Shown piece by piece: positions 20,801-52,437 of a DNA stretch of 64,000 nucleotides (positions are counted from its first letter, which is position 1; each line of letters starts with the position of its first letter). This stretch comes from Antedon mediterranea (taxonomy: Eukaryota; Animalia; Echinodermata). Location of the stretch: contig NC_092679.1 of assembly GCF_964355755.1 (NCBI RefSeq), positions 17,963,432 to 18,027,431 on the forward strand, written 5' to 3'. A program made the translations under genes and the position numbers. The notes beneath the pieces were generated by a model. That model did not search any database. It was not told the DNA's origin and worked only from the letters and a program-made list of their open reading frames with translations.

Positions 20801-23800
20801 CCATAATTGGGCACATCACACTTTTTTGTCAAACTAGTTTGATAATGTCAACAGAGCTTTACAGATGAGTTATATACCATACCATCATTTTGAACACAAA
20901 GATGGGATGGCCTTATTATATATATTATATAGTACATCAGAATGGACTTAACCCAAGCACTGAAATCAAATGGCTCATTTTGCATAAAAATTATCAAAAT
21001 TAAATGAACCCACAACTTCCAGATCACTATAGTCTGGCGTTCCTACCTCTAGAGCACCGAGCTTGCGCTGATGGCTAGGGGTTAGATTCGAGCCCAAGTA
21101 AGTAGCGGGTACTGCCCAACAGTATTGACTCAATACCATGATGCAAAACTACTTTACAGTAGCAGGAACGGATTTAAGTGGGTGCTAAACAGGCTTTAGG
21201 CCCCCCCTAAAATTGTACTTTTTTAAATAAAATAATCACTATTTTTATTTTTCTGCATCCTGACGGATGGTTTTATCATTTATGAAATATTTAGCGCCCC
21301 ACCCCCCCTAATCTATAATGCTGGATCCGCCTCTGAGTAGTTACAAACAATTACAATTTCAAAAAGGATATAGATGAAGAAACTGAGTAGCAAGTTCTTC
21401 TGATAGCATAAACCACTCATGCATTAAAAAAAGTACACGTGGGAATGACGATTCCTCGATAACTTGCCCTGCGTCATCTGAAAAATACAACAAAATAAAA
21501 CAAATTAAGTGATAGGACTGTCCGACTTTTTTACAAATTGATAAATAAAATTGAAATCAGACTGGTTAAAATCAACATCACATCCTGTTGCCACCTTCTT
21601 TTGCTTTCAATTTTTTATTATACAGAAATATTTTCGAATAGAAATGTTGACATTCTTTGATTCTCTGATGACATTTTTGATTTGTACATTACATTTTCTT
21701 TTTTCAAACCTTCGTTTCATTGTTATTGATTGTTTCTATCTTTTGTGCTTTTCAAGGAAATAAATGTTTATTTTTATTTGATACATACAGTAGAAATAAA
21801 ACAAATTACCTAAACCCAAAGACTTGATATTATTAAGCATTATTTCAAGAATGTCGTTGAATATATAATTTGAAATTTGTCCTGATTTCTTGCTAAATTG
21901 GGGGTAATTTATTCACATAGTTATTAACAAGCTATTATTAATTATTCCCAGCAGAAACAGGTTATAAATTAATGTAGTGAGAGAATGAGGATAAACTTAT
22001 GTCAGATAAAACAAGATTAAACAATGTGCTACAATTTCAGACTTTAAAGCCAAACTCACCAAACATTTGATCTCAAAATATTAAATTGTTTATATTGTTT
22101 ATTCAATGCAGCTTATTCTTTATTGGTGTATTTCATTATAACTTTGTTTTGTTTTTAATTATTTTGTACTACTTAGTTTTGTTATTTTTGTATTGTATAA
22201 TAATGATGGAGTAAGAACAGTTTTCCTGTTTGGGCTCATGCCTTTTACTTGCTCCTACCAAATAAATATTATTAATATTATAGATAGATGAATATCGAGT
22301 ACGGTTTTTTTTTTCTACACTATCAAAAAAATTTGATGTGCCCATATATGGACATGATGATGTCATCACTACACCATATTTGGGCATATCACTTCTATAT
22401 TTGGGCACATCACATTTTTTGTTGTCAAACTAGTTTGATAGTGTAGACAGATGAAATTTTTAAATGAACATAAACACCTGAACAGCCATTGCTTATGTTG
22501 CGTACAGTATGTGTCAACCATACATAATCAATCTATGGTGATACTATATTGTATGAATGCGCACTCATGTTAACATCGCCAAACCTCTTTATCAATCTAA
22601 CCAGCAATCATCCATTAATTCATTTGACCTCACTAATCTAATCTAAGCATTTTTTCTGTAAACACTAACCATGCTACAGTAGTATTACAATGTTACATTT
22701 GACTTCACTAATCTAATCTAAGCATTTTTTCTGTAAACACTAACCATGCTACAGTAGTATTACAATGGGCCTGTTTCTGCTGCAACTGCTCAAAATACGG
22801 TATAAAAATACGGTATAAAATACGGTATTTTTTATACCGTATTTTTTAGTACCCCGTTTCTGCTAACAATACTTCTTGGGTGGTCGTGTTAAATTTCATC
22901 TTTTTTACCCAAATTGCCATTCATTTATTTGATCGATAACTAAAAGTCGCAATAAAGGAAGTTTTACGTCTCACTTTCAACAGCCGAGCCCTAGTGATAG
23001 AGATGTTGTGAGAGCACAGAAAACATCGTAATGGGGACAATTAATTCGTTCCCTCCCCGAGTTATTGTATTTTGCAATGCTGTACTGCTTTCGCAGGCTC
23101 TTCAGCTTTGAGTTTACTTGCTTTGGAGACAAGTCTATTCCATACTCCTGCTTTATTTTTTTAGAAATGTCTTTATAAATGTGGTTGTCCCTTTTATTAC
23201 CTTTTAGTTGGCCAGACATTTTAGCTTCCCCACACAAATTTATTTAGTAAAACTGTTACGTCTTCGCTCCACATTTTCGTCGAATATATATACACGTGTG
23301 TAAAACAGCTGACAGCGACAGAAAATAAAAACATGAATGTTGACCTTTTGTCATGTAAAAAAAAAATACTTTTTTATTGGCAGCAGAAACGGGTACAAAA
23401 AATACGGTATAAATTTGTAAATACCGTATTTTATCCACAAATTTTGTGGGGAAAATACGGTATACAAAATACGGTATATTTTTTATGAGCGCAGTTTCTG
23501 CTGCCAAAAATATACCGTATATATATGGTATTCAAAAAATACCGTATAATATACGGTATTTAGTTGGCAGCAGAAACAGGGCCAATGTTACATTTGACTT
23601 CACTAATCTAATCTAAGCATTTTTTCTGTAAACACTAACCGTGCTACAGTAGTATTACAATGTTACATACATGAAAAGAAATCAATACAATTATTAGGCT
23701 ATTTTAAGAACCCACATAAAATGTTGAGAAGCTCATGTAAATAATAAACAGTTTGTCATCGACAACGGGGGCAATGGGCTTATGATTATCCCACGAATTT

Positions 23801-45802: not shown

Positions 45803-46447
45803 CGACAGAAACTAAGTGGCCTGGTTGGCAAACCAATGATGCGCAGTATCAAGTTCATAGCATAGGCGGTTACAAAAATGAGTTCCTTTTTCAGAAATAG
45901 ACAATTAGTAACAAAGAATGTCCAAAATTGGCAGGAAATTTATAATTAATGTTTCCTTTCATACTCATTGTGAGGGAATAATGCTATAATACTGCATCCC
46001 TTATTCCAGACAGTTTTATATTGTACTGGTAGTCATTGTTTAAATACTGTTGAATATTTTTCAAAGAATGGCAAAAATATGTAAACAATGGCCAATATAA
46101 TATCTCAGCTACATCTTGCTTTACTTGGTGAGAGCTACCATCAACATTTTAATTGATTTATTTTTCAAACAAATGTGAACAAAATGGATAAAAATTGTAA
46201 ATATAGTTTAATTTAATAATCAGACTAATCTCAATATATTGCAAATGCTTGAAACTGCCATTAACTGTTGAATAAATGTTTACAAAAGAGGAGTATGATA
46301 GGCCTACCAGGTGTTCAACAAATTCAGGAAATGTGTTTATACCATAGTATTGTCTGTCTCAGTTAGAGGAGGCATGGAGTGGGCTACTTATTATTTTCTG
46401 AATACTGATGTTATAAATAACTAAGCTACAGCAAACATGTTTAATTA

Positions 46448-47120
46448 CCGTACTGACGCGGGTATAAGCCCACCCCCCTCGAACATGAAATCACGTCAAG
46501 TTTGGGGGGTGGGCTTATACCCGAGGATCCAAAAATGCAGATCGTCAAAAACAGCACATGTACTGTACACTGTGTATTCCACCATGCAAGCGAGCGCCCT
46601 CACGTGTACGACGTTGCCTCTAAATACACGAGGTGTAGAGTGTCGGAAAATTAAGTTTATAGTTCGTGTAATTTATCGTAGAATATCTTATTTTAAAAAT
46701 CAATTTAACAAGAATTTATCAAGCAGAAAAGCAAGTATACAATGTTCGTTAAATAGAAATGTACCAAAGAAATTTAATAAGCTTGTTTATGGCAGCCGAT
46801 ACCAAATAGTGGTTTTCCGTTTTGGCGACTTGTAGCGTCGTGTGTGAAGCGATCTTCGACCGCGATGGAGTGTAAACAAAACAGGACCGCTAGGCCTCAT
46901 TATGGCCTAGCGTATATTAGCCTAGCTTGGTTATGATCAAAGGTAGGTGTATTCGGTGTATGGACGTCGCCAAATACAAAATAATGTATTACGACACACA
47001 CTGTAGATCTTCGAATTAATCGGTGGGCTTATACCCGAGTGCCTCATTTTTCATGAAAATTAGTCAAAAGTCGGGGGTGGGCTTATACCCGAGTATGGGC
47101 TTATACCCGCGTCAGTACGG
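46448..47120. mobile_element. Non-autonomous pogo/Tigger-like (Tc1/mariner) transposon
   Basis: Perfect 25-bp TIR CCGTACTGACGCGGGTATAAGCCCA, TA TSD, GGTGGGCTTATACCCGAG subterminal repeats. Confidence 0.92.
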
Positions 47121-47519
47121 TACAATCAAAATGCTGAAATATAAAGCATATAATAAGTAAGCACTTGATAATTAATAAGTAACTTTATGCAATCAGTGTA
47201 TCGTCTGAAAAACAGCTGGTGGTGGAAAGTCAACAACCTTTAATTTCAGAGGTTCAAAATTCTTTTAAAAGTGTTGACAGAGAATCATCTTCCTTTCTAT
47301 TGTGTCTACAAAATCGATTCGACAACATCGACGAGGTCAAGTCACAGAAAATGTTGAACTTTAAATATATTTATTAAGAACTCAATTAAATTTAGGCCCA
47401 GTTTTAAGCCCTAATCTCAAGGACAACCAGCAGCTCAGCATATTATACCTCGACACTCTGTATCAATCAAAGCCAATGTGATCGATTCCTACCTTTTAAA
47501 ACGTGAGAATAGGCTCTGG

Positions 47520-48534: not shown

Positions 48535-48680
48535 CATACACAACGCAAGGACGTAACGCAACGTAAGCGATTTGACCAATCATAAGCAAAGGGTTATTCG
48601 AACAGTGGCTTTTCATTGGTCAACTCGCTTGCCTTGCGTGTACGTCTTTGCGTTGCGTCTCTAGTGGGAACTACGTTTTT
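48535..48680. mobile_element. MITE family with GACCAATCA...TGATTGGTC core (second copy 16135-16290)
   Basis: Shared ACGCAAG..TTGACCAATCA...ATTGGTCAA..GCGTT..AGTGGGAA layout in both copies. Confidence 0.6.
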
Positions 48681-48918
48681 GTAAGAAGTGGTATAAATGG
48701 TGCCAGTGAAATCAGCTTATCAGTTAAATTGTGTGTAAACACTGCCTTAACAGATATGACGTATCGTTATCTCTTGATTATGACCTGTGGTATGCAAGGA
48801 AACACTAACGGAACAAGTTCGGCACACCTACAAAACCACTGTTTTCTTTCCATATGGACGGATATATAGCAGTAAGCCTATATTAGTAGATTCCATTTCA
48901 AGGTTTACCTGTTTAAAA

Positions 48919-50911
48919 ATGGATGGTGGGCCGAAATGGATTACTATTTTCTTGTTATTGTTGAACATTTTTTTATACGGAGAAGGAGTATTTGTGTACC
49001 CAGAGGTGTTTAACGACACGGAGCGGGATTCTTTCGTGGTAGGAGAGTTTCCTAAGAGTTTCATGTGGGGCGTAGCCTCGTCTGCATATCAGGTTGAAGG
49101 GGCGTGGAACGAAGGCGGGAAAGGAGAGAGCATCTGGGACACTTTTACACACAAATGGATGCAGGAAAATAGTGACGTTGGCTGTAACGCGTACCACAAT
49201 ATTGACAGAGATATACGACTAATAAAGAAGATGGGATTGACTCACTATAAATTTTCGATGTCCTGGAGTCGTTTGATACCCAGTGGTAAAATCGTGGATA
49301 GTATAAACATACCAGGTGTCAATTATTATAATTATTTGATAGACGGTTTAATAGAGGCGAATATTACTCCTATTGTTACATTGTACCATTGGGACCTACC
49401 ACAGGCACTTGAGGATGATGGAGGTTGGCTAAATAACCAAACGATATCTGATTTCTTGGACTTTGCTGTTGTTTGTTTTCAAAATTACGCCGACCGAGTT
49501 CCGTACTGGATTACTTTCGACAACCCATATAAGTTCTGCGTTCATGGATACGGTAATGGCAGCCTAGCTCCTGGTACTGGTGATCCAGGAACCGGGCCGT
49601 ATGTATGCGCGAATAATGTAATACGGGCTCATGCCTTAGTTTATCGCATGTATTATAATAACAATTTTCGCACCAGTGTGAACGGAAGTATAGGAATCAG
49701 TCTAGATTGCGATTGGTACGAACCCAGAGATTCGCTGAATAGCTTTGACCTCGCGGCAGCCGAGAAGGCGCGTAAATTTCGCACCGGTTGGTTTGCGCAT
49801 CCGATATTTATGGATGGAGATTATCCAAGGACTATGAAGATAAACATTAAGGAGCGGAGTCTCCAGCAAGGATATAACATCTCAAGGCTTCCAGAGTTTA
49901 CGGAAGATCAAAAGGAAACGATTGCCAAAACGAGCGATTTCCTTGGCATGAGTCATTACACAACGAAACTTGTTTCGTCGCCGACATCTTCAGGTGATGT
50001 CACAGTACCTTCATGGGCGACTGATGTTAACTTTCAGGAGTCAGTGAATGCTTCCTGGCCGACATCTGCACACCCATCTGACAGAGTTGTGCCATGGGGG
50101 ATTCGTAAAGCTTTGACATGGATTAAGAGCGAATACAATGATCCAACCGTTCTGATTACGGGCAATGGAATTGCCACGTCTGGTCAGGCCGAGGATGCTG
50201 ATCGAGTGAAATATATCAAGGCTTATACAAACGAAATTTTGAAAGGTAATGTTAATTTCTAACACTTTGAACTAGGACTAAACGAGTAGTGTAGCCTATA
50301 TTAGATGATCCAAATTTTTGTTCTTTTTTCACAATCTACCGATTTATCACCAGATTCTGTGTATTGTATCTCTCCACATACGGTATGTCATTCTGTCTAA
50401 ATCTGTAGTGTACCACATCCGTGTAAAGTATTGTTGAATACATTCGCCAAATAGTGTATACATTGTGTAGTATCATTATCACATTCGTTTCTCCTCGTTT
50501 TCCACCGCTCTGACCATGTTTCATGTATTTTATTTATTTTAATACGTTCTCCATACTTTACTTCCATGATGATACTTAGTGTAGAAGAATGCACAGTTTG
50601 CATCAAAATATGTAAAAACCTATTTTCAATTTACAGCAATAAATGAAGATGGGGTAAACGTCATTGGTTATACAACAACCTTAATGGACAGCTTTGAATG
50701 GGACTTGGGATTCAGCTTGAAATACGGTTTACATAGTGTTGATTTTAACGACATCCATCGGCGACGAACTCCTCGACTGTCTTCGACATATTACGCTCAA
50801 CTTGCCGAAGAAAACGGCTTCACGACGAACAAGGCACCGTCACAAGCGATTAGTGAAACATTAATATTAGGCCTATTTGTAATTATTAGTTATTTATGCA
50901 TAAATCTATGA
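48919..50911 (+). CDS. Glycoside hydrolase family 1 (lactase-phlorizin hydrolase/Klotho/LCTL-like) single-domain protein, predicted secreted and membrane-anchored, catalytically inactive, 533 aa
   Basis: Coding exons 48919-50245 (donor AAAG|GTAAT) and 50637-50911 (acceptor TTTACAG|). GH1 motifs FMWGVASSAYQVEG, YKFSMSWSRL, TLYHWDLPQ, MDSFEW. N-terminal hydrophobic signal WITIFLLLLNIFLYGEG; C-terminal hydrophobic ILGLFVIISYLCINL. NEP->DNP and ENG->GNG. Probable 5' UTR intron 48102-48902; AATAAA at 51123. Confidence 0.93.
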
Positions 50912-51162
50912 TTCATGACTAGTTAGAAATTCAAAGAAAATGATTAAAAGTATTTAAAGTTTCCAGTGCACACGTCAGTTAAAACAAAGTTGCCGCGTGC
51001 GTACAAAAACCGTCACCTGCAAACATCGTTCGACGGCATGCGTCTGTCATAGATGACGTATAATGTAAAGTTTCAAGTCAATTATAAGCCTAATCGTACT
51101 ATTCAAACCGTGCCCTGGTATGAATAAAATTCGACATTTTGTATGTAAAAAACATCTTATTA

Positions 51163-52437
51163 TGGGTGTTCATCCCTTACACGTCACGGGTGCTTATCCC
51201 TTACACGTCACGGGTGCTTATTCCTTACGCGTCACGGGTGCTTATCCATTACACGTCACGGGTGCATATCCTTTCCGATCCCCGTCATGGGTGTTTATCC
51301 CTTCCACGTCACGGGTGCCTTACACGTCACGGATGCTTAATTATCTCTTACACGTCATGAATGCTTATCCCTTACACGTCACGGGTAATCTCTTACACGT
51401 TACGGGTGCTATCCGGCCCTTACCCGTCACAGGGCCGTAGCCAGGATCTGTCAAGGGGGGGTTCGGACACTAAAGCATGCTATATAACCAATGAGCAAAA
51501 AGATCGTACTTTTTTCCTCCTCCTCAAACACGTCGATAATTTAAATGACGATAACTATTTGTTGCCGTATGTTAGATGCGCGTGCTCTGTGCGGAACCGC
51601 CGATTGTTTGATCATTTACTTCGTATTTTGTTTTGCGTTCAAGTTCAATGCGAACGTATATCTACAGCCCCGAAAAAAGCACACTGGGTGAAGGCAAATG
51701 CTATTTGCTAGCTCTATCTATAATATTTATTTACAGCAATTTGTTGAGGAATAAAAATATGTAAATAGGTGATATTGATACATTTTAGTACGTATCGGCG
51801 TGGTCTAGAAAAAAATAATCGGATGCCATAATGTGAACTACAGTACTTGATACCATAGATATTATAGTGTAAAATATTAATATTCACTATAATCCTCTAT
51901 GATACATTATACTTCATAGTCACACATAAATACTGATGTACGTCGGAAGGCTATATACTTTATGCATGCTGCCTGACTGCCAGTGATCTAAACAATTATA
52001 GGTACGCAGTTGTCTGGCGGTGTCCTTTGTACGAATCGTTCGTGCGCCAGCTCGCTATGAGACGCGTCAATATCATGTTACATGCAGGGACCAAACATTT
52101 ATTTTTCAGGTTAAAATCGGCAATTCATTTGCAGCTTTTAGAAATTTACAGACACGTATCACTAGTTGACGCTCATACAGAGAAGAAGGTTCACGAACAA
52201 GTTTACGAATTTTTCAATTTACAAACAACTTTCTGTACTGTGGGGCACGTATTTGGAGGATTTTTGGAGATGAGGGTGAGGTATTGGGCATGTTGGGGAT
52301 GGGGGTTCGCAGTTGGTTAAGGGGGGTTCGCTATAAAGGGGGGTTCGCCCGAACCATAAACCCCCCCTCCCCCCTGGCTACGGGCCTGCGTCACGGGCGT
52401 TTATCCATTACACGTTCACGGACGTTTATCCGTCATG
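51163..52437. repeat. 24-bp minisatellite (TTATCCCTTACACGTCACGGGTGC) split by a 959-bp transposon
   Basis: About 11 units at 51163-51429 and about 2 more at 52389-52437. Confidence 0.9.
51430..52388. mobile_element. hAT-like non-autonomous transposon with 5-bp TSD
   Basis: TIR CAGGGCCGTAGCCAGG / CCTGGCTACGGGCCTG; CGTCA duplicated at 51425-29 and 52389-93. Confidence 0.9.

Follow-up and report, generated by a model that had tools for sequence, protein, structure and literature searches.

The window, a stretch of 64,000 nucleotides of Antedon mediterranea DNA, carries on its plus strand a two-exon gene at 48919-50911 for a protein of glycoside hydrolase family 1 (GH1). In the list of open reading frames, the uninterrupted genomic frame (48919-50262) encodes only 447 amino acids, and removal of an intron at 50246-50636 gives a 533-amino-acid protein with its stop at 50911. 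This spliced product is identical to XP_071962606.1 (P0001) of Antedon mediterranea, which the database names myrosinase 1-like, and the intact 533-amino-acid frame reported in an earlier note on this DNA holds, given that splicing. Coding exon 1 (48919-50245, plus strand) comprises residues 1 to 442 and one further base, taking in the predicted signal peptide and the greater part of the GH1 barrel (Pfam PF00232, E 9.4e-123); the intron is 391 nt long, runs from GT to AG and follows the codons for LK; coding exon 2 (50637-50911, plus strand) supplies the end of the barrel, the C-terminal anchor signal and the stop (Pfam E 8.2e-13). The profile matches on both exons, together with a TIM-barrel model, place the protein in GH1 family PF00232 with one GH1 domain, and no second GH1 was found in the 64-kb window. 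Eight chosen database reading frames of other animal GH1s stop a few residues past E[AV]LKG, which is the same intron point. Other splice acceptors tried for the gene gave ends that were shorter or not GH1.

Evidence of transcription comes from one contig of run X1, presumably an RNA run, that joins 50243 to 50635 and so skips the intron, while the remaining runs read through it. Since this joint is what splicing gives, the gene is transcribed, as that single intron-skipping contig attests. An X1 contig runs unbroken from a likely 5' untranslated region (48821-48918, plus strand) into exon 1. The spliced contig covers codon 415 and the Trp deletion described below, with no difference listed there, and an X1 contig equals the window over codon 202 (49371-49673, 0 other letters). 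At codons 202 and 415 no difference is listed in the contigs of four runs from two samples. X1 derives from a second sample and study and is thus an independent check, while S2 may be the sample behind the assembly of the window. Because the X1 contigs carry them, the changes at the catalytic site are not an assembly error.

The remainder of the window holds several other features. A multi-exon RasGEF-domain gene, which we presume to be RasGRP-like, occupies 2879-25287 on the minus strand; PF00617 is matched by three of its exons, near 2.9, 6.5 and 12.5 kb, one of them below the curated cut-off, and more exons are likely near 15.9, 21.4 and 25.1 kb, where there is no Pfam match. Inside its span, on the minus strand, lies a Myb/SANT-like fragment (22980-23243; PF13837, E 2e-12) that is probably a transposon remnant. 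An element of 677 bp at 46446-47122 with perfect 27-nt terminal inverted repeats looks like a MITE. A short inverted-repeat element at 48541-48670 (arms 48556-48587 and 48608-48639) stands 250 nt upstream of the GH1-like start codon, and summed contig depth there is over a thousand times that of the flanks, indicating a high-copy repeat. Downstream, a 24-nt tandem repeat (51157-51440) that varies in length between samples is covered by an X1 contig and is possibly 3' untranslated region, and a high-copy 964-bp segment (51425-52388) is skipped by X4 and X5 contigs, marking a polymorphic insertion.

The catalytic site of the protein departs from that of an active retaining GH1, which has an acid/base Glu on strand 4 and a nucleophile Glu on strand 7. 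WITFDNPY begins at residue 197 and ITGNG at residue 413, so numbered that N202 (AAC, 49522-49524) and G415 (GGC, 50161-50163) align, as counted from the alignments, to E675 and E885 of domain 2 of the Aplysia enzyme akuBGL; these are the catalytic pair of that domain (PMC10619976). Both Glu are thus absent, as the earlier note had read from the two motifs. At the acid/base site, D201 and N202 (49519-49524, plus strand) replace N-E, and D201 is polymorphic with Asn: G>A at 49519 in run X5 gives D201N, an allele that reads NNP, and X4 contigs break at that base. A third motif, GYTTTLMD, begins at residue 453 (50666-50689, plus strand) and is one residue short of the family motif; the loss of its conserved Trp, also noticed earlier, can now be refined to a one-codon deletion relative to the Anneissia orthologue, which reads GYTVWSLMD, so that the glycone-platform Trp is deleted in Antedon only. 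K111 (49249-49251, plus strand) replaces a family Arg that is 96% conserved, and a second allele encodes Thr. The -1 sugar site of GH1 comprises eight listed residues, and retaining GH1 enzymes require the nucleophile (PMC6522968). Mapped by hand onto that list, the Antedon reference allele keeps 5/8 and Anneissia 6/8, the full site of an active GH1 being broken in Antedon by the Trp deletion. With both Glu lost, the single-domain protein is very probably catalytically dead, as had been proposed.

The fold around this site appears sound. The predicted structure is a confident barrel (pLDDT 92.0, pTM 0.90), and its best structural match is akuBGL (PDB 8IN1; Z 59.6, rmsd 1.1 A over 473 residues); no Klotho chains were among the structural matches listed, which is no evidence either way. 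The first loop is of the enzyme type, spanning 62 residues against 70 to 72 in KL2/KLB2, with enzyme motifs kept. We take this first loop to be what forms the receptor-binding arm in KL2. That arm is placed at residues 530-578 of Klotho (PMC10942382), and the Antedon loop is 8 to 10 residues shorter than its counterpart in KL2/KLB2.

Hydropathy finds hydrophobic segments at residues 7-21 and 517-531, the latter followed by two residues only. The first accords with a predicted signal peptide of about residues 1-23 (48919-48987, plus strand), its cleavage site set by eye from homologue N-termini, and the second belongs to a C-terminus (50828-50908, plus strand) that resembles a GPI signal, with a possible omega site near N507 picked by eye, a polar spacer, the hydrophobic stretch and no cytosolic tail. 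By hydropathy and by eye alone, the whole GPI pattern fits. The two hydrophobic segments behind the signal peptide and tail-less terminus described before are therefore confirmed by hydropathy, and the transcribed protein is likely GPI-anchored at the cell surface, the location that the earlier note had given it. Two residues after the hydrophobic segment are not the type I helix and cytosolic tail characteristic of Klotho and LCTL. A tail-less hydrophobic C-terminus is present in all 10 of the active ambulacrarian paralogues chosen for this check and absent from other ambulacrarian GH1s, such as P0006 and P0021. Because active paralogues have the same C-terminus, we read the anchor as inherited and as no sign of a receptor role.

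Within the searches made, the gene was seen in two species only. Its sole orthologue found is P0002 of Anneissia japonica (67% identity; next matches at most 49%); no further crinoid orthologue appeared among the matches listed in a search of representative proteins, nor in the best 120 of 1082 matches to shorter proteins (top 50% identity). P0002 reads WITFNEPY, ILITGNG and GYTVWSLMD: it keeps the acid/base Glu and has G415, S345, S387 and Y472 as Antedon does. Against a reference of 133 columns that are at least 85% conserved across 80 other GH1s, 9/133 are changed in both crinoids (including N345S, W387S, E415G and F472Y), eight in Antedon alone (including R111K, N201D, E202N and the Trp deletion) and five in Anneissia alone (including His to Asn). 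Because the orthologue keeps the acid/base Glu and has the same Gly, parsimony suggests that the nucleophile was lost before Antedon and Anneissia split and the acid/base residue later, in the Antedon line. Of the two substitutions whose conservation the earlier note had thought telling, G415 is thus common to both crinoids, and N202 is confined to Antedon. Klotho KL1 is in the opposite state, with N239 in place of the acid/base residue and the nucleophile E414 kept (PMC10942382), whereas the nucleophile is lost in both crinoids. We consider the DNP match to KL1 convergent, because DNP is Antedon-specific, D201 is not fixed and the order of loss is opposite to that of KL1. DNP is found too in a beetle GH1 and in the N-terminal domain of a shark lactase.

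Constraint was gauged at the amino-acid level between these two species, which the tree sets 0.48 changes per column apart. They differ at 13/133 conserved and 131/331 other columns (p 5e-11); for ten control pairs, the differences at conserved columns number 3 to 11 of about 130. The excess of crinoid differences at conserved columns lies in the pocket. Using a list of 15 pocket columns that we chose ourselves, partly from recall and after the motifs had been seen, Antedon is changed at 9/15 pocket against 8/118 scaffold columns (Fisher p 3e-6) and Anneissia at 5/15 against 9/118 (p 0.01), with 7/118 scaffold columns differing between the two. A decayed pocket in a conserved scaffold indicates that a protein without its nucleophile was kept folded for a long time, and the confident barrel model agrees with this. 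One stretch, residues 206-235 (49534-49623, plus strand), a loop past the acid/base strand that may form part of the pocket entrance, departs from the orthologue at 2 sites where 9.5 would be expected (z -3.3, simulated p 0.023), a weak signal given that 13 control pairs span -1.9 to -4.35.

Variation within Antedon gives another picture of the present. In a variant table read in all but five rows, eight of the ten coding changes listed for this gene alone are missense and two silent (pN/pS 1.09), one variant lying at a depth under 5; within sample S2 the count is 5 to 2 (pN/pS 0.68). Eight missense of ten has a probability of 0.005 if pN/pS is 0.15 and of 0.63 if it is 1; for S2 only, P is 0.06. 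X4 carries an in-frame 6-bp deletion near the stop, and no stop or frameshift is listed in the four runs. Antedon has more unique changes than Anneissia against 10/10 outgroups tried (chi2 above 3.8 in 3/10), and losses at non-pocket conserved columns number three specific to Antedon and four specific to Anneissia. The polymorphism hints at relaxed constraint in present-day Antedon.

To place the gene among GH1s we compared domains by BLAST and by trees. After the orthologue, active hemichordate and echinoderm GH1s with both Glu come first (478 and 475 bits), then LCT, LCTL and GBA3 domains (391-439 bits), KL1 (360) and KL2 (249). In three careful trees of 67, 36 and 30 rows that we selected, the crinoid pair is fully supported (100/100) and falls outside the fully supported KL1, KL2, LCTL and LCT II clades; GBA3 is a two-row clade in two of these trees. 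In the mixture-model tree among them, the pair has a weakly supported place beside active ambulacrarian GH1s (59/55, 64/75). In a phylogeny of the kind that the earlier note had envisaged, with KL1/KL2, LCTL, LCT and GBA3, the pair is thus not nested within Klotho, LCTL or lactase, whereas AU tests reject none of the sister positions (KL1/KLB1 p 0.27, LCTL 0.15, KL2 0.37, lactase domain II 0.34). Quick trees of the pair disagree with one another, and groupings with LCT II/III and KL1 (SH-aLRT 95) and with insects vanished in the careful trees. A grouping with the clade of P0025 arose where a constrained tree beat a poor quick search, and the careful free tree is without it. Also dropped was the idea that the crinoids and Saccoglossus P0257 belong to one ancient ambulacrarian clade of dead GH1s, as P0257 nests with active hemichordate GH1s (100/100).

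Taken alone, the trees weakly allow a distant kinship with Klotho, LCTL or lactase. The Klotho/LCTL relationship first put forward is not supported, in that the orthologue combines NEP with a Gly nucleophile, DNP occurs elsewhere and the anchor is common to active paralogues; the other branch of that proposal, a convergent pseudoenzyme, is supported by the probable surface anchor, the conserved scaffold and the transcript. We infer that the gene descends from an ordinary anchored echinoderm or hemichordate beta-glycosidase. Among such active ambulacrarian GH1s (P0006, P0008, P0009, P0010, P0013 and P0025) are the best sequence matches, most with a signal peptide and a GPI-like tail, and they differ from the Antedon protein in having both Glu and the full sugar site intact. 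No paper on a crinoid GH1 was found in the literature searched, from which subscription journals were mostly missing.

Loss of catalytic Glu is widespread in the family. Of 687 GH1 domains cut from search matches, a set heavy in vertebrate lactases and with some odd gene models among them, both Glu are kept in 439, only the nucleophile is missing in 114 (102 as Gly), only the acid/base in 67 and both in 31, with 36 unresolved. The 67-row tree, whose rows were picked so that such cases were represented, requires a minimum of 8 changes for the double-loss state, which is seen in cypriniform lctla and in beetle, hemichordate and mollusc GH1s. Judged from these sequences, double loss of the catalytic pair recurs in animal GH1s and is not unique to Antedon, which we regard as another non-catalytic animal GH1, convergent on Klotho, LCTL and the lactase pro-domains.

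The comparisons with these systems are instructive. Cypriniform lctla, like the Antedon protein, is a single extracellular GH1 domain without either Glu, and its motifs WITFNNPW and IY[VI]TGNG (13/15 listed cluster members) approach the motif pair of the Antedon N201 allele; the single GH1 ectodomain is a trait of LCTL at large. LCTL and lctla differ in being type I membrane proteins whose cytosolic end is basic, the nucleophile is retained in most LCTL, and their clade is fully supported (100/100) with the crinoids outside. Alpha- and beta-Klotho have the same non-catalytic fold, KL1 with DNP as in Antedon and KL2, with Glu kept and the nucleophile lost, as in Anneissia. Klotho differs in its two tandem domains, where Antedon has one, its transmembrane helix and tail, the KL2 receptor-binding arm and the one Glu kept per domain (PMC10942382); on this last point the earlier note was right, yet double loss has a precedent in lctla. 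Domain II of lactase-phlorizin hydrolase resembles the Anneissia protein, with a Glu acid/base and TGNG or AGNG at the nucleophile site, and differs as part of a four-domain precursor from which it is cleaved off and in which it acts in cis, whereas the Antedon gene stands alone. Domain 1 of akuBGL is an invertebrate GH1 domain that proved inactive when tested, as the Antedon protein very probably is, but one fused to an active domain and with its nucleophile kept. Single-domain GH1s without both Glu occur in Diabrotica (XP_028127908.1), Saccoglossus (XP_077868286.1) and Haliotis (XP_046380555.2), and the first resembles Antedon further in its DNP, signal peptide and hydrophobic C-terminus; each, however, groups with the GH1s of its own lineage and not with the crinoids. 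No functional study of these three was found in the literature searched. Leaf-beetle GH1s (P0329, P0345, P0321, P0352 and P0327) are without one Glu or the pair, and several of them have Thr-rich stalks and hydrophobic C-termini. Lymnaea P0245 (QIJ96588.1), called 'klotho' by one source, keeps both Glu in its second domain, like akuBGL.

With confidence only a little better than even, we favor the explanation that the Antedon protein is an intact GH1 without catalytic Glu, maintained as a non-catalytic surface binder that uses the former pocket and its entrance loops; as part of this reading, the gene is likely a maintained pseudoenzyme. The steps would be secretion, GPI anchoring, no hydrolysis and binding without cutting. 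In the crinoid ancestor, the nucleophile Glu would have become Gly with most of the sugar site kept, a configuration in which a glycoside would be bound but left uncut, and the ancestral ligand would most likely have been a glycan or glycoside. By analogy, the Anneissia state resembles rice BGlu1 E386G, mutants of which, by their entry titles, have cellotetraose-bound structures (3scw, 3scv and 4qlj). Later losses in the Antedon line would have removed the platform Trp and the Arg along with the acid/base Glu, making binding there more dependent on the rim and less so on the deep sugar site. With 5/8 sugar-site residues kept and the Trp platform lost, Antedon is less likely to have a strong lectin role; tight sugar binding there is made less likely by the missing Trp and by the polymorphic residues 111 and 201. 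Counting against a maintained binder are the pN/pS in Antedon, which fits weak current constraint, and the occurrence of the gene in two species only within the searches made. It may be that the gene had its role in the crinoid ancestor and that the Antedon copy, now under relaxed selection, is beginning to decay, an unlikely reading in our judgment. In its favor, the missense excess is improbable under a pN/pS of 0.15, X4 has its deletion, and Antedon exceeds Anneissia in unique changes with every outgroup. Yet the transcript is spliced, the four runs list no stop or frameshift, the non-pocket losses are 3 against 4, and the counts are small, with one thinly covered variant and an S2-only P of 0.06.

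It is improbable that the protein helps an active GH1 paralogue to fold or traffic, doing in trans what the inactive lactase pro-region does in cis. The lactase profragment is described as an intramolecular chaperone (PMC6412902), the Anneissia combination of a kept Glu and a Gly nucleophile equals that of domain II of shark and coelacanth lactase, and P0002 and the active P0025 are probably neighbors, with accessions seven apart and the same longest contig of 2,810,392 bases; but the window has no second GH1, the Antedon protein has its own anchor signal, and the two domains of akuBGL are reported barely to touch (PMC10619976). We see little prospect for a Klotho/LCTL relative, or a convergent co-receptor, working with an FGF receptor. 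The sister positions left by the AU tests and the quick-tree grouping with LCT II/III and KL1 would suit it, as would the rescue of C. elegans klo-1/klo-2 mutants by human KLB (PMC5623842). That grouping vanished, however, the order of loss is opposite to that of KL1 and LCTL, there is one domain and no cytosolic tail, and with an enzyme-type first loop no receptor-binding arm is apparent. To our knowledge, endocrine FGFs are specific to vertebrates, which also counts against a co-receptor. Highly improbable, finally, is weak or atypical activity through, for example, an external nucleophile or D201 standing in. Formate or azide can rescue nucleophile mutants, which can also serve as glycosynthases (PMC6151457), and weak Klotho activity has been reported (PMC10942382); here, though, the Arg, the Asn and the Trp have been lost along with both Glu, D201 is not fixed, and domain 1 of akuBGL, in which Asp takes the place of one Glu, is inactive as a recombinant protein in its published description (PMC10619976).

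A bolder idea, which we think has only a slim chance of being right, is that animal GH1s repeatedly become surface receptors by the same short path and that Antedon has independently evolved a Klotho-like co-receptor, with a peptide or growth factor taking the place of sugar in the emptied pocket. If true, feather stars would catch that path in two steps, the nucleophile going before the acid/base and Trp, and a peptide ligand or receptor partner, if found, would raise the importance of the protein greatly. The Antedon and Anneissia pair, with the segregating D/N allele, offers natural steps on the way from enzyme to pseudoenzyme, each open to assay. The recurrence of double loss, zebrafish lctla included, means that in invertebrates a Klotho-like motif says little about kinship with Klotho. 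In lctla itself, a case from a model organism, the losses also look stepwise, as knifefish P0105 keeps the nucleophile and the cypriniform cluster (P0070; P0514-P0527) lacks both Glu. Four shark lactases (P0150, P0151, P0153 and P0207) have Gly at the nucleophile of domain III as well, so their phlorizin site may be inactive.
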